DNA of 64,000 nt from an uncultured delta proteobacterium (GTDB lineage: Bacteria; Desulfobacterota; Binatia; Binatales; Binataceae). Positions within the stretch are counted from its first letter, which is position 1. Each line of letters starts with the position of its first letter. Position numbers and translations under genes: made by a program. Shown piece by piece: positions 52,623 to 58,603 of the stretch. The DNA lies in assembly GCA_963765675.1 (NCBI GenBank), contig CAVXXK010000001.1, positions 1,920,001 to 1,984,000 of the forward strand, written 5' to 3'. The notes below the pieces were generated by a model that searched no databases, was not told the DNA's origin, and saw only the letters and a program-made list of their open reading frames with translations.

Positions 52623-53783
52623 ATGGCGATGAAGATCGAAGGAACCTGCGACCCCAAATTCAATCGGGTCAAAGATGCGTTCGCGGCCAATTTCGAATCC
52701 GGCGTCGAGGTTGGCGCCGCGGTGGCGCTGACGCTCGACGGAAAGCCGATCGTGGATCTATGGGCCGGCCACGCCGACAAGGAAAAAACCCGGCCGTGGA
52801 CGCGCGACACGATCGTCAACGTCTATTCGACCACCAAGGGGCTGACCGCGATCTGCGCGCATCGGCTGGTCGATCAGGGCAAGCTCGATATCGATGCGCC
52901 AGTGGCGAAATACTGGCCCGAATTCGCGGCAGCGGGTAAAGAAAAAATTCCGGTGCGATTTCTGCTCTGCCATCGCGCCGGACTGCCGGCGGTCAGCAAA
53001 CCACTTGCGCCCGATGCATTGTTCGACTGGACCACGATGTGCTCGGCGCTCGCCGAGCAGAAGCCGTGGTGGGATCCGGGAATGCGCCACGGTTACCATG
53101 CGCTGACGTTCGGATTTCTGGTAGGCGAAGTGATTCGCCGGATCACGGGAAAATCTCCCGGAACTTTTTTTCGCGACGAACTCGCGAAGCCGCTCGGCCT
53201 CGATACTCATATCGGGCTCGGCGCTGAGCATGACGCGCGCACCGCGAACATGATCGCGTCGCCGCCGCCCGCGCCCGGCGAGCCAAATATTTTCGCCGAG
53301 GTGCTGAAGAATCCCGAGTCGGTGACCGCCAAGGCGTTCGCGAATCCTCCGGTGCTGGGCGCGCCCGGCCTGGTAAACAGCCGCGCGTGGCGCGCCTGCG
53401 AACTACCCGCCGCCAACGGTCATACCACTGCGCGTTCGCTCGCGCGGCTCTACGGCGCGCTCGCGCGCGGCGGCGAAGTCGATGGCTACCGCGTGCTCAC
53501 TCCCGACAGTATCGTGCGATGCCACAGCGAACAGGCGAGCGGACCGGACGAAGTCCTGTTCATCTCGACGCGATTCGGGCTGGGTTTCATGATGTCGCAG
53601 CCGGGTGGAGCGATGGGCCCGAACGCGCGAGCCTTCGGGCATCCGGGAGCCGGCGGTTCACTCGGATTCGCTGACCCTCAGGCGAAGATCGGATTCGGAT
53701 ACGTGATGAACAAGATGCAGGCGGGAATCCTGATCGACCCGCGCGCAACCGCTCTGATCGATGCGGCATACGCGTCGCTGTAG
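52623..53783 (+). CDS. Beta-lactamase-family serine hydrolase (family VIII esterase-like), copy 1
   Basis: YSTTKG (SxxK), LLCHRAGL, HGYHA, FGHPGAGGS. Confidence 0.92.
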   Translation: MAMKIEGTCDPKFNRVKDAFAANFESGVEVGAAVALTLDGKPIVDLWAGHADKEKTRPWTRDTIVNVYSTTKGLTAICAHRLVDQGKLDIDAPVAKYWPEFAAAGKEKIPVRFLLCHRAGLPAVSKPLAPDALFDWTTMCSALAEQKPWWDPGMRHGYHALTFGFLVGEVIRRITGKSPGTFFRDELAKPLGLDTHIGLGAEHDARTANMIASPPPAPGEPNIFAEVLKNPESVTAKAFANPPVLGAPGLVNSRAWRACELPAANGHTTARSLARLYGALARGGEVDGYRVLTPDSIVRCHSEQASGPDEVLFISTRFGLGFMMSQPGGAMGPNARAFGHPGAGGSLGFADPQAKIGFGYVMNKMQAGILIDPRATALIDAAYASL

Positions 53784-53806: not shown

Positions 53807-54970
53807 ATGGCTCCAAAGATTGAAGGAAGCTGCGGCGAGAAATTTCGTCGCGTGCGCGAGACCTTCGCAGCGAATTTCGAGAATGGCGGTGAAATCGGCG
53901 CGGCAGTTGCCGTGACGCTGGACGGTGCGCCAGTCGTCGATCTGTGGAGTGGTCATGCGGACGCGGCGCGCACGCGGCCGTGGACCCGAGACACGCTGGT
54001 CAATGTCTATTCGACCACCAAGGGACTGACCGCGATGTGCGCGCATCGCCTGGTCGATCAGAACAAGCTCAATCTCGACGCTCCGGTCGCGCGCTATTGG
54101 CCCGAGTTCGCGCAAGCGGGCAAAGACAAACTGCCGGTGCGATTTCTGCTTAGCCATCAGGCGGGACTGCCCGCGGTGAGCAAGCAACTCGCGGCCGAAA
54201 CTTTTTACGATTGGAACGCGATGTGCGCCGCGCTGGCCGAGCAGAAACCATGGTGGGAGCCGGGCACTCGCCACGGTTATCACGCGATTACCTATGGATG
54301 GCTGGTGGGCGAAGTGATTCGCCGCGTGAGCGGGAAGACGATGGGCGCGTATTTCCGCGACGAGATCGCGAGGCCGCTCGGCCTCGACGCCCACGTCGGA
54401 CTCGATGCCAAAGAAGACCCGCGCGTGGCGGAAATCGTACCGGCGCCGCCACCTCCGCCGGGACAGCCGAACCCGCTTCAAGAGATGCTCAAGAACCCCG
54501 AGTCGATGGTCGCGCGGGCGATCATGAATCCTCCGACGGTGGTGCTCGATCCCAAGGTGGTCAACAGCCGCGCGTTCCGCGCAATGGAATTGCCTTCTGC
54601 CAATGGACACGCTACCGCACGGTCGCTGGCTCGCGTGTATGGAGCGCTCGCGCGGGGCGGCGAGGTCGATGGCTACCGCGTGCTCAGCCCGGCGAGTATC
54701 GAGCGAGCCTACGCCGAGCAGGCGTTTGGATTCGACGAAGTCCTGCAACAAACGTCGCGGATCGGACTCGGCTTCATGCTGTCGCACGCGGGCGCGCGGC
54801 TCGGACCGAATCCGCACGCGTTCGGGCATCCGGGCGCGGGCGGCTCTTTAGGCTTCGCCGATCCCGACGCGAGAATCGGTTTCGGCTACGCGATGAACCA
54901 GATGGGTTCCGACACGGTAATGGATCCGCGCACGTACAGGCTGATCGACGCGGTGTACGCGTCGCTCTGA
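53807..54970 (+). CDS. Beta-lactamase-family serine hydrolase, copy 2 (tandem paralog)
   Basis: Same motifs as copy 1; colinear with it over the full length. Confidence 0.92.
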   Translation: MAPKIEGSCGEKFRRVRETFAANFENGGEIGAAVAVTLDGAPVVDLWSGHADAARTRPWTRDTLVNVYSTTKGLTAMCAHRLVDQNKLNLDAPVARYWPEFAQAGKDKLPVRFLLSHQAGLPAVSKQLAAETFYDWNAMCAALAEQKPWWEPGTRHGYHAITYGWLVGEVIRRVSGKTMGAYFRDEIARPLGLDAHVGLDAKEDPRVAEIVPAPPPPPGQPNPLQEMLKNPESMVARAIMNPPTVVLDPKVVNSRAFRAMELPSANGHATARSLARVYGALARGGEVDGYRVLSPASIERAYAEQAFGFDEVLQQTSRIGLGFMLSHAGARLGPNPHAFGHPGAGGSLGFADPDARIGFGYAMNQMGSDTVMDPRTYRLIDAVYASL

Positions 54971-54998
54971 GAGACTTTCGGCGAGAGAAGGCGGGAGT

Positions 54999-55853
54999 TT
55001 AAAGTCCGGCGGACTGGTGCAACGCGCAGCGTAATTTGAAGAAGTGCGTCATCGAGGTCATGTAGCGCACGCGCCACGCCGACGGCATCTTTCCGTTCTT
55101 CAGATTCACATTGTAGCGCGTGCCGATCAGGCTGTAGGCCTTGCGAATCCGGCGGAAGAGCTCGTCCCCGGAGCCTGGGGTGACTCCGCCGATCGCGCCG
55201 ATCTCGGTCATCAATTCCTTGCTGTAGGCGGCCAGCGCCACAAGGCTGTCGGCGAACAATTCGTCGCCTTCCTTCAGATGGCTGGAGAAGGTGCCCTCCA
55301 TGAACGCGGTCATCGAGGCTTTCTCTCCGACCAGAGAGCCGTAGATGTAATGTCCCAATTCGTGGCCGAGCGTCGCTGCGACCGCAGCGGGGTGATGCGC
55401 GGTATTCACGAAGATTACGAACTTGCTGCGTTCGCCGATATTGGTGCGGCAGAAAAATCCGCGCAGGGAAAGGCCGGCGCCTTGCCGATACGGCTCGGCG
55501 CGCAGTTCGATCTCGCGGGGACCGAACGTGCGAAACAGTTTGTCGATTACTTCCGGGCTGTCGAGATTGTTCCAGCGTCCGTCGTACGACTTGATATCGC
55601 TGTCGATCACCTGGGCGAGCTCTCGGACCAGGCGCCGCTCCGGCATCGCCGGCTCCTCGAGATAGTTTGCCGAAAGAACTTTCTTCAGATCGGTGAGTTG
55701 CCCCAACACGCGCTTGCCCATCGAGTTGAACGGCACCTTGATTTCGTCGAGTAGGCGCGAAATCAACCCGTCCACCTCGCGCGAAGCCATCGCGTCCGGT
55801 CCGCGGCTGGAGATGCGTTTTCCAAGTTCAGGCGAAATTAGGGCTGCGCTCAT
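54999..55853 (-). CDS. ImmA/IrrE-like (M78) zinc metallopeptidase
   Basis: LRGFF..FVIFVNT.H..ATLGHELGH..DELFAD: HEXXH plus a downstream E-x2-AD. Confidence 0.75.
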   Translation of the reverse strand: MSAALISPELGKRISSRGPDAMASREVDGLISRLLDEIKVPFNSMGKRVLGQLTDLKKVLSANYLEEPAMPERRLVRELAQVIDSDIKSYDGRWNNLDSPEVIDKLFRTFGPREIELRAEPYRQGAGLSLRGFFCRTNIGERSKFVIFVNTAHHPAAVAATLGHELGHYIYGSLVGEKASMTAFMEGTFSSHLKEGDELFADSLVALAAYSKELMTEIGAIGGVTPGSGDELFRRIRKAYSLIGTRYNVNLKNGKMPSAWRVRYMTSMTHFFKLRCALHQSAGL

Positions 55854-55962
55854 ACGGGCACCAGATCTCTGTCTCTAAACGAGACACCCCTCCCCGAAAA
55901 TCAGAGAGTAGTATGATCAGAACTAACTGGCGATACAAGTAAATCGAATGCAAAACGTTAAG

Positions 55963-55979
55963 CGCAAGTCTCGTGCCGC
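55963..55979 (-). promoter_or_regulatory. Sigma54 promoter of the IrrE-like peptidase gene
   Basis: Minus strand CGGCACGAGACTTGCG versus consensus TGGCACG-N4-TTGC; about 110 bp upstream of the ATG. Confidence 0.7.
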
Positions 55980-56138
55980 ACAATATATAGGTGCCTCGAG
56001 CCCGGAACCTACTAACGGTGGGGATCGGTGCTTTTTGGCCGATGTCACAACGCAACGTCTGTCTGAGACTTTGTCGCAGAACTGACACATTTCCAATATC
56101 TGGGCGGGCTGTCCGCCCAGCGTTGAGGTTGTCGCCGG

Positions 56139-56561
56139 TCATTGAGAATTCAGCGCCTGGCGGACGGTATTCAGGATGTACAGGAAATCGCGCGTGCTGC
56201 GTACCTCGCCCATCAGCGCGACGCGCGAGAGCATTTCCATTTCCTGCGACGTGACGCGCATCGAGTTCCGCAGTTGTTCACTGCGGCTGAACTCTTCCCA
56301 CGCCGAGCTGGCGGAAGTCTCCGCCGGCGAAGCAACGATTGCGTGCGCTTTCGGATTCGCAAGGAAGAAGAGTTCCTTGCAATCGAACCCCAGCACGTCG
56401 GCCAGCCGCGCGACGATCTCCTCAGATGGATGTCGTTTGCCAGATTCGAGGTGGCCGATGTAGGGGGTCGAGGCGCCCACGCGATCCGCCACCTCCCGCT
56501 GAGTGAGATCCATCTGCCGCCGCCGTTCGCGGATCACTTCCCCAAAAGTCGCCTTGACCAT
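56139..56561 (-). CDS. XRE-family HTH repressor with DdrO-like C-terminal domain
   Basis: FGEVIRERRRQMDLTQREVA..PYIGHLESGKRHPS; C-terminal MLSRVALMG; AAGGAGG RBS. Confidence 0.88.
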   Translation of the reverse strand: MVKATFGEVIRERRRQMDLTQREVADRVGASTPYIGHLESGKRHPSEEIVARLADVLGFDCKELFFLANPKAHAIVASPAETSASSAWEEFSRSEQLRNSMRVTSQEMEMLSRVALMGEVRSTRDFLYILNTVRQALNSQ

Positions 56562-56678
56562 GACTTACCGTGCCCTCCTTGATGCCGCTGCTATGAGCGG
56601 TGCAATTCAGTTCCAGTCCATTCCAAATCGCGCGCGGCGGTCCCCGTCGAGCGCGTCAACCTCGTTTACTGTTCGGAT

Positions 56679-57113
56679 TCAGTCTCGAGCCGCACCAACC
56701 TCTTCAACGTGATTCCTGCGGCCCGGACCTGCCGCGCCAAGCGCGGTGGAGCGGCGCCTGTCATCTAGCGCCTGCAGACACGCCGTGCGTCCGGCGGACT
56801 TCTGGATTTGGCGCCGTTTCCTTTCCAGCGCTGAAACGATAGCGCGGTGAGCGGTCAGTCGGCCGCCCAATTCGACCCAATGGCACGGCGGACAAACAGG
56901 CGTACAGAAACCGGTTTCGCCGGCCCCGCTGCATCGATAACGCGCGCCACAACTGGCGCATCGATGCGCATGTGCGCCCGTCGCCACGCGCGAAAGCTCG
57001 TCGGAAGGGTCCGGACATGGCAGCGGCAGCAGCATGAGGGCTGATTCGTTATCCGCCGTATCAATGATGAGCCGGCTGATGCGCGCGCCAGTGACTGAGC
57101 GAGGCTTTCCCAT
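56679..57113 (-). CDS. Hypothetical Cys-rich, putative Zn-binding protein
   Basis: HRCASC..YRC..FCTPVCPPCHW followed by a helix. Start at 57113 or 57035. Confidence 0.55.
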   Translation of the reverse strand: MGKPRSVTGARISRLIIDTADNESALMLLPLPCPDPSDELSRVATGAHAHRCASCGARYRCSGAGETGFCTPVCPPCHWVELGGRLTAHRAIVSALERKRRQIQKSAGRTACLQALDDRRRSTALGAAGPGRRNHVEEVGAARD

Positions 57114-57121
57114 AACTCGCC

Positions 57122-57150
57122 ATTGTTCATGTAATCCTACATTCTGTCAA
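57122..57150 (-). promoter_or_regulatory. Sigma70-type promoter with a palindromic operator in the spacer
   Basis: Minus strand TTGACA-N17-AACAAT; palindrome ATGTA-N4-TACAT at 57129-57142. Confidence 0.65.
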
Positions 57151-57247
57151 GTAGCCTAAGCATACTGTAAGCAGATTTTTGCCCGCTGTAATGCGTTCAA
57201 TTAGGCACAGCCGGACGGGCTAATTCGCGGATGACAAACAGGGATGG

Positions 57248-58603
57248 CTATTTCAGCGCGGCGATACGCGCGACGACGCGATCCACGAACACGCCGGCCG
57301 AGCCCAGGTAGCCTGCCGGGTCCATCGCGCGCTCGATCTCCTCGCGCGAGAGATGACCTCTGAGGTCCGCGTCTTCCGCAATCACGTCGCCGAGCGCGCG
57401 ATTCTCGTCGCGAGCGCGATCGCACGCGCGGGAGACCGCATGATGCGCGGCGGCGCGGCCCATCGCGGGAGTCAGAACCGTTGCGAGCGCCTCCGCCATG
57501 ATCAGGCTGCGGGTCGCGTCGAGGTTCTGGCTCATCCGCGCTGGGTCGGCGATCATACCACCCGCGAGCTTATGCGCGCGCGCCAGGGCTCCCGCAGTTA
57601 GCGTGAAAATCTGTGGTATTGCGAGCGATTCGCTCTGCCACGGTCCGGTCGAGCGCTCGTGATCCTGGGTCATCGCGGAGAAAACGATCGGAACCAGCGC
57701 GTGCACCGCGCGAGTCGCCGCGAGGATATATTCGCTCAGGATGGGATTGCGCTTCTGCGGCATCGTACTCGACGATCCCGCACCCTCTGCGTGAGGCTCG
57801 CAGACCTCGGCGACTTCGGTCTGCGACAGCAGGACGACATCAAGCGCGAACTTCGACACGCTGCCGCATACCAGCGCGAGGATGGCGGCGATCTCGGCCA
57901 GGCCGTCGCGCGTCACGTGCCAGGAAAGATCGGGCGCGGTGAGATCTAGCTCGCGGGCAAGAGCTGCCGCCACCGCCGGACCGCTCGAACCCAGAGAGGC
58001 GAGGGTTCCCACCGCTCCTCCGAACTGCACCTTGAAGACACGAGCGGCCGCCTGATCCAGGCGTACGACGTGATCCGCGAGCGGAGCAGCCCAGGTCGCG
58101 CACTTCAAGCCAAACGTTATCGGCACCGCGTGCTGAAGATGGCTCCGTCCGGCTGTCGGCGTATCGCGATAGCGTTTGGCTTGCCCGGCGAGTGCTTGTG
58201 CCGTCGCGATCAGATCGCGGCGGATAATCGCGACGCCGCGACGCATCTGCAGGACCAGCGCGGTATCGACGATATCCTGAGTAGTCGCGCCGAGGTGAAC
58301 GTAGCGTGCGGCATCGGTCCCGGCTGCGCGGCCCAGCTCAGCAACCAGCTCGACGACCGGATAGCCAACGGTTGCGGTGCTGGCGGCAATTTTATCGAAA
58401 GATAGGACCTCGATTCGCGCCGCGGCAGTGATCGCTTTCGCAGCCTCGCCCGGGATGATTCCAAGCGATGCTTCCGCGCGCGCCAGGGCGGCCTCGACTT
58501 CGAGCATCGCGGCTAGCTGGGCGCGATCGGAGAGCAGGGCGCGCATCTCGTCGGTGCCGAAGAGCGAGCCGTAGATTTGCGAGTCGGCGGGATTGACGCT
58601 CAT
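57248..58603 (-). CDS. pcaB: 3-carboxy-cis,cis-muconate cycloisomerase (fumarase/ASL superfamily)
   Basis: VHLGATTQDIVDTA, QFGGAVGTLASL, SSTMPQKRNP, DHERSTGPWQSE. Confidence 0.82.
   Translation of the reverse strand: MSVNPADSQIYGSLFGTDEMRALLSDRAQLAAMLEVEAALARAEASLGIIPGEAAKAITAAARIEVLSFDKIAASTATVGYPVVELVAELGRAAGTDAARYVHLGATTQDIVDTALVLQMRRGVAIIRRDLIATAQALAGQAKRYRDTPTAGRSHLQHAVPITFGLKCATWAAPLADHVVRLDQAAARVFKVQFGGAVGTLASLGSSGPAVAAALARELDLTAPDLSWHVTRDGLAEIAAILALVCGSVSKFALDVVLLSQTEVAEVCEPHAEGAGSSSTMPQKRNPILSEYILAATRAVHALVPIVFSAMTQDHERSTGPWQSESLAIPQIFTLTAGALARAHKLAGGMIADPARMSQNLDATRSLIMAEALATVLTPAMGRAAAHHAVSRACDRARDENRALGDVIAEDADLRGHLSREEIERAMDPAGYLGSAGVFVDRVVARIAALK

Follow-up and report, generated by a model that had tools for sequence, protein, structure and literature searches.

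The closest described systems pair a COG2856 (M78) peptidase with an XRE repressor. IrrE (PprI)/DdrO, the radiation-desiccation response of Deinococcus, consists of an M78/COG2856 HEXXH peptidase and an XRE repressor whose HTH is N-terminal and whose C-terminal domain has three helices. Its genes are chromosomal, and peptidase and repressors can be unlinked. Repressor paralogues occur, and D. deserti carries DdrOP3 on plasmid 3. IrrE/PprI is defined by a GAF-like C-terminal domain that senses ssDNA, and it cleaves its XRE partner on a stress signal (zinc, ssDNA). The locus described here shares the overall architecture (with the three-helix domain predicted), the chromosomal setting, the possibility of unlinked genes, and the repressor paralogues. 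Its peptidase differs in having no GAF-like domain, in adding an N-terminal helical segment, and in being only 17 to 18% identical to IrrE in structural alignment. The peptidase gene also carries a sigma-54-type promoter, and the operon contains a Cys-rich partner gene. An RDRM-like regulon was not found in a strict scan, LexA is present, and the phylum is unrelated.

CapP/CapH regulate CBASS and other defense operons next to them; at the present locus, no CBASS or other defense gene turned up in the scanned ORFs of the 35- to 64-kb interval. The only PADLOC matches at the locus were to the two proteins themselves, from the capP (E = 2.6e-4), capH, and generic HTH models. Sequence matches in the PDB were far below family level (E = 0.06 to 0.4), and the repressor C-terminal domain matches DdrO, although weakly when taken alone, and not CapH. 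ImmA/ImmR of ICEBs1 (Bacillus subtilis) are carried on the mobile element that they control. No mobile element can be seen at the present locus, and its genes are kept throughout a bacterial family. The fused XRE-COG2856 regulators of Mycobacterium tuberculosis (PDB 6cz6, 6cyy, 6cyj, and 6d2s) have the HTH and COG2856 in one polypeptide. Here each is encoded by its own gene, with the HEXXH..E residues conserved.

An earlier note on this DNA had recognized an M78/XRE protease/repressor pair, and the pair is indeed of the M78 (COG2856)/XRE kind. The locus represents a lineage-specific form of an already known switch type, COG2856/XRE. It appears to be a core, vertically inherited version of the switch in an uncultured soil lineage, in which the protease family has expanded to several paralogous pairs per genome. 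Its putative regulatory inputs (the sigma-54 promoter and the Cys6 partner) depart from the Deinococcus model.

Gene set and genomic setting

The window is the whole 64,000-nt stretch of DNA that was analyzed. It comes from the 4.5-Mb genome of an uncultured soil bacterium of the Binataceae. The genes of interest, from the ORF list, are as follows:
56679-57113, minus strand, Cys-rich small protein gene (144 aa)
56139-56561, minus strand, XRE repressor gene (140 aa)
54999-55853, minus strand, HELGH peptidase gene (284 aa)

These are the three co-oriented genes claimed earlier within 54999-57150, and all are minus-strand ORFs. They are more than chance ORFs, because all three are kept in related genomes. 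The gap between the xre and peptidase genes is 285 bp and holds a hairpin and a separate putative promoter. A 104-aa ORF extending across this gap (55828-56142) was rejected as a gene because its tblastn matches in close relatives break into two frames and their identity (61 to 79%) is below that of the flanking genes in those same genomes.

A subset of the 27 nonoverlapping ORFs of at least 110 aa between 35 and 64 kb was scanned, and a few of those scanned had no Pfam match. The neighbors with a match are respiratory, biosynthetic, or catabolic: alternative complex III, cytochrome oxidase, DapB, DUF1054, GFA, two LipL-like esterases, a pcaB-like lyase, a Gfo/Idh/MocA oxidoreductase, an amidohydrolase, a ring-hydroxylating dioxygenase, and an SDR. 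The absence of integrase, phage, and CBASS genes noted earlier was confirmed among the Pfam-matched ORFs scanned in this interval. The chromosomal setting also held up: the context is stable, no mobile element is visible, and synteny of the locus is conserved across genera. No Rfam match was found in 54000-58000 at an E value of 1 or better. A search of the earlier literature for Binatia with XRE or sigma-54 returned nothing on this protease/repressor system.

Peptidase, repressor, and predicted cut site

The peptidase contains the following features:
About residues 21-70, minus strand, N-terminal helical extension
55011-55640, minus strand, peptidase domain (residues 72-281)
55350-55364, minus strand, HELGH motif (residues 164-168)
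55260-55262, minus strand, E198

Judged by sequence and modeled fold, the protein is a divergent M78/COG2856 enzyme and a predicted zinc peptidase. The HEXXH..E pattern described earlier is present as HELGH at residues 164-168 with E198 downstream. All 38 aligned relatives keep H164, E165, H168, and E198 unchanged, so the pattern is real. Together with D202, these residues are also invariant across orthologues and paralogues at 24 to 48% identity, which favors a working active site. Its spacing and conservation suggest that E198 would be the third zinc ligand. The native motif is HELGH; HQLGH is a mutant that was suggested in the earlier note.

Pfam PF06114 (M78) scored 17.8 bits against a cutoff of 22 (E = 0.003) and matched residues 145-176 only. 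It matched 24 of the 38 family members at an E value of 0.01 or better, with a best value of 4.4e-5. The nine top structural matches were to CapP, IrrE/PprI, and COG2856 regulators, which gives the model the M78/COG2856 catalytic fold. PDB sequence searches retrieved CapP alone (E = 0.38 for the single sequence and 0.056 for the profile). The profile gathered only 224 clusters among 1.84 billion proteins and never reached the canonical M78 families. Some database entries for relatives carry the name "ImmA/IrrE family metallo-endopeptidase." The earlier comparison with IrrE stands for the COG2856/M78 kind but not for the GAF-like domain. The protein stops at residue 284, its model (72-281) aligns with residues 11-167 only of the IrrE chain, and its structure is nearer to CapP than to IrrE/PprI.

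The repressor contains the following features:
56373-56546, minus strand, HTH (residues 6-63; Pfam HTH_31/HTH_3, E = 1e-14)
56148-56303, minus strand, predicted three-helix C-terminal domain after a flexible linker (residues 87-138; AF2 model)
56211-56216, minus strand, predicted cut site L116|M117 (alignment to DdrO L106|R107)

The AF2 model of the repressor had a pLDDT of 89.4. DdrO was its top Foldseek match and its best full-length PDB match. The DdrOP3 gene of D. deserti was located by a profile search of NC_012528, and hhalign of the repressor against DdrOP3 gave a probability of 96.5% (E = 9.4e-10). The C-terminal domain alone gave a probability of 5% against DdrO over just 18 columns. 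Full-length structural alignments had an rmsd of about 11 Å, so a shared C-terminal fold is a tentative reading. The proposed likeness to DdrO extends beyond the HTH and up to the predicted cut site for the full-length protein, but the C-terminal domain alone matches weakly. The repressor profile also matched PDB 9sf2 ("Transcriptional regulator") at residues 7-115 (E = 2.5e-10), and the literature search found no paper mentioning this entry. DdiA of Myxococcus was set aside as a relative; PMC12288472 gives it a two-helix C-terminal architecture and describes no protease partner.

IrrE cuts DdrO at L106|R107, according to PMC6868357. Profile alignment puts this bond exactly on L116|M117 of the repressor, which is the AL|MG position predicted in the earlier note. 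The DdrO C terminus that the note gave is near the fetched D. deserti DdrOP3 sequence, and the repressor C terminus that it quoted (VTSQEMEMLSRVALMGEVRSTRDFLYILNTVRQAL) is present letter for letter in the translation. L116, G118, V120, and R121 hardly vary among 35 repressor sequences, including paralogues at 34 to 39% identity. Within the C-terminal domain, conservation peaks in the loop that aligns with the DdrO cut site. This loop is not basic (MGEVRS, versus RGKRPR in DdrO). From the alignment we infer cleavage of the repressor, with L116|M117 as the predicted cut site. If the site is true, the DdrO-type cleavage module would be older and more widespread than Deinococcota. The small GAF-less protease would then be a system for studying how such switches get triggered.

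Contact between peptidase and repressor is weakly supported by complex prediction, with a score of 0.45 against 0.13 for the best control. Of 157 solved complexes, 116 attained this mark, as did 2 of 215 mismatched pairs; only 18 of the solved complexes, but both of the passing mismatches, did so with scores no higher than 0.60. Runs agreed in at least 59% of contacts, and the partner pLDDT was at least 72. The complex prediction is silent on catalysis.

Promoters, candidate operators, and the Cys-rich protein

The regulatory features are as follows:
57164-57171, minus strand, distal arm of an inverted repeat (CTTACAGT), candidate operator half of the Cys-rich/XRE operon
57122-57150, minus strand, sigma-70-type promoter TTGACA-17-AACAAT, upstream of the Cys-rich gene
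57136-57142, minus strand, proximal arm of the inverted repeat (ATGTAGG), within the promoter spacer (upstream regions aligned by eye)
56100-56120, minus strand, hairpin CTGGGCGG-ACAG-CCCGCCCAG, 19 nt past the repressor stop codon
55964-55977, minus strand, sigma-54-type -24/-12 element GGCAC-N5-TTGC, 124 nt upstream of the peptidase ATG

TTGACA-17-AACAAT was the only promoter-like site in 54900-57350. It has 10 of 12 matches, and the block is conserved across genera. The repeat CyTACAGT-N21/22-nnGTAGG occurs around TTGAC in 13 of the 23 loci with the Cys-rich gene. This conserved inverted repeat at the promoter of the Cys-rich/repressor operon is new here and is a candidate operator. The hairpin is a possible terminator between the xre and peptidase transcripts. 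It was not called by the terminator scan because it has no T run.

The sigma-54-type element was found in 27 of 31 orthologous loci (at least 60% identity), at -116 to -127 in 26 of them and at -76 in one. In a second sample of 49 orthologous loci, it was present in 26 and absent from 23. The chance rate is 0.005 per 300 nt. A further block of conserved sequence lies upstream of the -24 element. The genome encodes rpoN and 18 enhancer-binding proteins, none of the latter inside the window. As a motif match, the conserved sigma-54-type promoter before the peptidase gene is new here. The literature search found no paper naming both COG2856 and sigma-54. These sites suggest that sigma-54 is used and that the repressor would bind DNA and regulate its own operon. 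For the 107-nt peptidase leader, predicted folding did not exceed that of shuffled sequences (z = -1.05).

An unlinked repressor paralogue of the same genome (C1:1916097-1916498) is 68% identical over residues 4-137 and is nearly identical around the predicted cut site. The 4.5-Mb genome was scanned with strict forms of two candidate operators (the Cys-rich promoter repeat and the operator of this orphan); looser scans were judged too noisy. The strict patterns returned only the orphan's own promoter and one unrelated site (C1:1824213). No regulon is visible in this strict scan, in which the operators are confined to their own promoters, although a small or degenerate regulon may exist. A multigene DNA repair regulon with a shared palindromic operator, as for DdrO, was not seen with these patterns. 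The earlier idea of a RecA-independent stress regulon switch is unsupported, given this search and the presence of LexA in the genome.

The Cys-rich protein has the core HxHxCxxCx5CxGx4GxCxPxCxxCxWxELGxQL. Among 24 aligned sequences, its six Cys and two His residues are each kept in 85% or more. The conserved Cys6 motif is new here, and its pattern indicates that the protein probably binds a metal. No family was found for it in Pfam, NCBIfam, or PADLOC. A search of 5.8 billion proteins gave 7 matches, and tblastn placed the gene upstream of the repressor in several genera. ESM Atlas matches were not used; their scores were 0.88 or less, and recognition was below threshold.

Distribution, mechanism, and alternative readings

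Of the order's 165 genomes, 141 had peptidase relatives, and the repressor C-terminal module was matched in all 141. Nine genomes lacked the module, and all nine also lacked the peptidase (one inferred from genus tallies). The repressor lies just upstream of the peptidase in 28 of 49 orthologous loci. Co-location in relatives is common but not universal, because the other 21 have no adjacent repressor; the association holds at the family level. Both partners were tallied as lacking in 24 of the 49 loci and the repressor in 21; in 14, the peptidase lacks both partners yet is still beside the conserved esterase gene. A repressor paralogue lies just downstream of the peptidase in about 19 of 28 paralogous loci. 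These pairs have a different gene order, with the peptidase first and the genes overlapping. The genome studied here encodes three peptidase paralogues, each adjoining a full-length repressor paralogue, and unlinked orphan repressors exist besides the paralogous pairs. At three loci, the protein encoded after a paralogous peptidase has the C-terminal module and no Pfam HTH match. One such protein was translated and has a hydrophobic C-terminal tail instead.

We think it probable, though well short of certain, that the locus is a chromosomal, vertically inherited, Binataceae-specific COG2856 (M78)/XRE protease/repressor switch that works as follows. A DdrO-like C-terminal domain of three helices most likely lets the 140-aa repressor dimerize. 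The repressor most likely binds the inverted repeat bracketing the -35 box and so represses its own two-gene operon. The predicted cut would strip the last repressor helix and end dimerization, as IrrE does with DdrO. The unlinked paralogue at C1:1916097-1916498 is probably a further target of this peptidase. Because a conserved sigma-54-type promoter precedes the peptidase gene, at least part of the signal probably comes in by way of an enhancer-binding protein that induces the protease.

The peptidase-like protein could instead act without proteolysis, as an antirepressor that binds the repressor C-terminal domain and breaks the oligomer. The HEXXH motif would then be structural or otherwise used. 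PMC6868357 describes such cleavage-free inhibition for Rir/Crh, a COG2856/XRE pair of phage TP-J34, and the weakly supported contact fits it. We consider this unlikely, given the invariance of the five active-site residues and the peak of repressor conservation in the loop aligned to the DdrO cut site. Slightly less probable still is that the two genes are independent neighbors, the peptidase having other substrates and the repressor being an ordinary XRE factor that regulates itself and uses its C-terminal domain for dimerization only. Separate promoters with a hairpin between the genes, the 21 orthologues without an adjacent repressor, and the weakness of the predicted contact are consistent with independence. 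It is opposed by the recurrence of the pairing, with another gene order, in independent paralogous lineages. Moreover, no genome that lacks the C-terminal module was found to have the peptidase, and the module still follows peptidase paralogues when fused to an HTH-less protein.

A three-gene toxin-antitoxin-like or addiction module, with a Cys-rich toxin held off by the repressor and freed by the protease, has the lowest probability of these readings. Patchy distribution is typical of such modules and was not seen. The locus has a core chromosomal context, cross-genus synteny, and no sign of mobility. The Cys-rich protein shows the pattern of a metal site and matches no toxin family, and the peptidase persists beside the esterase gene at the 14 loci that lack both partners. 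On the other side, the Cys-rich gene heads the repressed operon and matches no known family, and strict operators only at their own promoters would fit a self-contained unit. COG2856/XRE pairs are also often in predicted operons with toxin genes, as stated in PMC6868357.

The protease/repressor switch that we favor could also be part of a two-tier cascade, which we rate as rather improbable. Sigma-54 and an enhancer-binding protein would induce the GAF-less M78 protease, which would inactivate a family of DdrO-like repressors (the adjacent one, the orphans, and the membrane-tethered module proteins). The Cys6/His2 protein, encoded with the repressor, would be a redox-sensitive zinc store or gate for the protease. 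Such a cascade is not known to have been described for COG2856/XRE systems. Zinc-release signaling has been proposed for Deinococcus IrrE, and a Cys6/His2 zinc gate would echo it.

Locus, surroundings and distribution

The earlier note proposed an IrrE/DdrO-like protease-repressor switch, and the kind of system, a COG2856/XRE pair, is borne out. The ORF listing confirms the three same-direction minus-strand ORFs that it placed at 54999-57150:

54999-55853 (-): peptidase, 284 aa, with HELGH at residues 164-168
56139-56561 (-): XRE-type HTH protein (the repressor), 140 aa, with the HTH at residues 6-63 (Pfam HTH_31/HTH_3, E 1e-14)
56679-57113 (-): ORF for a Cys-rich protein, 144 aa

The same note's stress regulon and RecA independence are unsupported, and the genome encodes LexA. 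The system is classed as a variant and not a new kind, because COG2856/XRE pairs are already described, in one published account, as predicted in many bacteria (PMC6868357). It stands out by core-chromosomal inheritance in the Binataceae, a DdrO-like predicted cleavage module, putative substrates that are orphan or fused proteins, a Cys6 partner and a promoter of sigma-54 type. Literature searches turned up no publication on this system, nor any on COG2856 proteases under sigma-54 control.

The repressor and peptidase genes are separated by 285 bp. A 104-aa ORF spanning this gap was rejected as a gene: close relatives have it split between two frames, and its conservation is below that of its neighbors. 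A Pfam scan of 35-64 kb covered part of the ORFs, a few of which had no match. The matched neighbors encode alternative complex III, cytochrome oxidase, DapB, two LipL-like esterases, a pcaB-like cycloisomerase, a Gfo/Idh/MocA oxidoreductase, an amidohydrolase, a ring-hydroxylating dioxygenase and an SDR. No integrase, phage or defense families were found among these matched ORFs. The esterase genes are tandem paralogues of the beta-lactamase fold (52623-53783 and 53807-54970, +) and are convergent with the peptidase gene. In many genera at least one of the two stays beside it.

The genome contained 4.5 Mb in 16 contigs, and the window corresponds to C1:1920001-1984000. Peptidase relatives (E 1e-5 or better) were found in 141/165 genomes of the order, and in 3 of the 201 genomes of an even phylum sample, this genome counted. 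Tallies count seven genomes flagged as unpublished (G357, G218, G361, G363, G362, G301 and G217); without them the count is 134/158. With a threshold of E 1e-3, a profile of 38 relatives matched just 224 clusters among 1.84 billion representatives. When each species was sampled by a single genome, 80 loci were retrieved; most have titles naming Binataceae/Binatus or unclassified (delta)proteobacterial MAGs, with a few weak matches elsewhere. Named homologues were all "Candidatus Binataceae" or "Binatus" MAGs. On these genome, cluster and species-level tallies, the peptidase family is small and restricted to the lineage.

Peptidase, repressor and predicted cut

The Pfam M78 match of the peptidase covers residues 145-176 only (17.8 bits; the cut-off is 22), and 24 of 38 family members match the model at E 0.01 or better. 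H164, E165, H168, E198 and D202 are invariant in the family alignment. The AF2 model has a pLDDT of 82.7 and a pTM of 0.84. Its top Foldseek matches are CapP, of CBASS, and Deinococcus IrrE, with weak E-values (0.03). The IrrE alignment ends at IrrE chain residue 167, where the peptidase too ends. Compared with IrrE, the Binataceae peptidase has ~70 extra N-terminal helical residues but lacks the GAF domain. It is nearer CapP and, because of this and the missing GAF domain, is not an IrrE orthologue.

The AF2 model of the repressor (pLDDT 89.4) contains the HTH, a low-confidence linker at 78-83 and helices at 87-100, 105-116 and 123-138. Foldseek placed DdrO of D. geothermalis and D. deserti at ranks 1, 2, 4 and 9 (E 5.6e-5 to 1e-3, 133-137 columns). 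When ddrOP3 (D. deserti plasmid 3) was aligned to the repressor family profile, the probability was 96.5% (E 9.4e-10, 112 columns). The junction of LTPDWIRTLARIEL and RGKRPRDKQDWFE in ddrOP3 falls over that of VTSQEMEMLSRVAL and MGEV-RSTRDFLY in the repressor. The C-terminus quoted in the earlier note matches the translation exactly, and the cut predicted there is at this same position. The C-terminal domains alone scored 16.1 (P 0.0074, 18 columns), with an hhalign probability of only 5%; all 200 shuffled controls scored lower (mean 8.8, sd 1.8, max 14.6). L116, G118, V120 and R121, in the loop, are among the best-conserved positions of 35 sequences, including paralogues of 34-39% identity. 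The likeness to DdrO thus compared appears real but distant, and we infer that cleavage would fall between L116 and M117. PDB 9sf2_A, an unpublished 129-aa "Transcriptional regulator," matches profile positions 7-115 (E 2.5e-10). It outdoes DdrO in sequence match and reaches the helix before the predicted cut. A literature search for PDB 9sf2 found no paper.

Pairing of the two families

The genome encodes three peptidase paralogues, each adjoining a full-length repressor paralogue. At the two paralogous loci the peptidase gene comes first and the repressor gene follows it, and the ORFs overlap at the contig C6 locus. The neighborhood sample contained 77 species-level loci (L087-L163), 49 orthologues (identity 45% or more) and 28 paralogues. 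A co-oriented upstream repressor is present in 28/49 orthologous loci and a downstream repressor paralogue in about 19/28 paralogous loci. In g143, which is the largest genus, the peptidase orthologue is still beside the esterase gene and the adjoining repressor is usually missing. Three g143 genomes examined contain 2-3 repressor copies elsewhere (55-66% identity), the nearest on the same contig ~50-120 kb from the peptidase.

The 63-aa C-terminal module is present in 156/165 genomes, with up to 19 copies. All nine module-free genomes (eight listed, one deduced from genus tallies) also lack the peptidase; therefore the module is present in every peptidase-positive genome, in counts that are not independent, the genomes being kin. 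Three proteins without a Pfam HTH match, or any Pfam family, carry the module downstream of paralogous peptidases:

L064:2314-2859 (+): module-bearing HTH-less protein
L063:2199-2852: module-bearing HTH-less protein
L066:912-1523: module-bearing HTH-less protein

One of them, translated, has the module N-terminally and a C-terminal hydrophobic stretch that is probably membrane spanning.

Complex prediction for the peptidase and repressor scored 0.45 against 0.13 for the best control, in a range (0.60 or under) where the mark was reached by only 18/157 solved complexes and by both passing mismatches. Overall the mark was reached by 116/157 solved complexes and 2/215 mismatched pairs. Contact agreement between runs was at least 59% and partner pLDDT at least 72. 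The prediction weakly suggests that the two proteins may be in contact.

Two more M78 peptidases of this genome are above the Pfam cut-off (C6:725-1691 and C1:1125285-1126249). Each adjoins a short XRE gene that lacks the C-terminal module, and these loci are ordinary ImmA/IrrE-type pairs.

Candidate promoters and operators, and the Cys-rich protein

Two promoter-like elements were located:

57150-57122 (-): sigma-70-like site TTGACA-17-AACAAT, upstream of the Cys-rich gene, the only such site in the region
55964-55977 (-): sigma-54-type element GGCAC-N5-TTGC, upstream of the peptidase gene

The second fits the sigma-54 -24/-12 consensus. It is present in 27/31 orthologous loci with at least 60% identity; in 26 of these it lies at -116 to -127 and in one at -76. 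Without unpublished locus L014 the count is 26/30. It was found in 26/49 loci of a second sample and in 3/24 rows of paralogues, with a chance rate of 0.005 per 300 nt. The genome encodes rpoN and 18 enhancer-binding proteins, none of the 18 in the window. At C6:209379-210343 and C6:213638-214138 of this genome (G000), a paralogous peptidase-repressor pair has a gene for a sigma-54 enhancer-binding protein ~3.3 kb away; the regex used found no sigma-54 motif upstream of its peptidase. Downstream of the window's element, the block 55890-55945 (-), TTTACTTGTATCGCCAGTTAGTTCTGATCATACTAC, is identical in L001 and L006-L010 of the same genus and similar in the rest. It includes GTTAGT, a half-site of the orphan operators, and could serve either as a repressor site or as a further promoter, of sigma-70 type. 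In five g143 loci the -24 element is directly preceded by a 14-bp palindrome, CTAyCTATAGGTAG, which L022 and L031 carry in perfect form and L018, L024 and L028 with a single mismatch. In this genus, without the adjoining repressor, it may be the operator of another regulator.

An inverted repeat, CyTACAGT-N21/22-nnGTAGG, brackets the sigma-70-like site and is kept in 13 of 23 loci with the Cys-rich gene. It is a plausible candidate operator for autoregulation. The Cys-rich protein belongs to no known family in Pfam, NCBIfam, PADLOC or ESM Atlas. Twenty-four homologues share the core HxHxCxxCx5CxGx4GxCxPxCxxCxWxELGxQL, and this conserved Cys/His core points to a putative metal site. A zinc-release model has been put forward for IrrE (cited in PMC12828697). 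By analogy, the Cys-rich protein could serve as a relay for redox or zinc; it may instead be the switch's output.

An orphan repressor, with no adjoining peptidase, is encoded at C1:1916097-1916498. It is 68% identical to the window repressor over residues 4-137 and almost identical near the predicted cut. Orphan repressors have a conserved promoter of their own, TTGCCT-N17-TACwAA (read by eye), and a pseudo-palindrome, ACwwAC-N-GTwAGT, overlies its -10 box. In its strict form, each of the two candidate operators is unique within the genome. The orphan at C1:1916097-1916498 is in a conserved three-gene row (L048, G000 C1:1914597-1917998; all -) encoding an FxLYD-domain protein of 117 aa that has a hydrophobic segment at its N-terminus (2205-2558), the repressor (1492-1986) and an anion:cation-symporter-type MFS transporter (69-1361). 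The transporter may be its target. The order is the same in locus L037.
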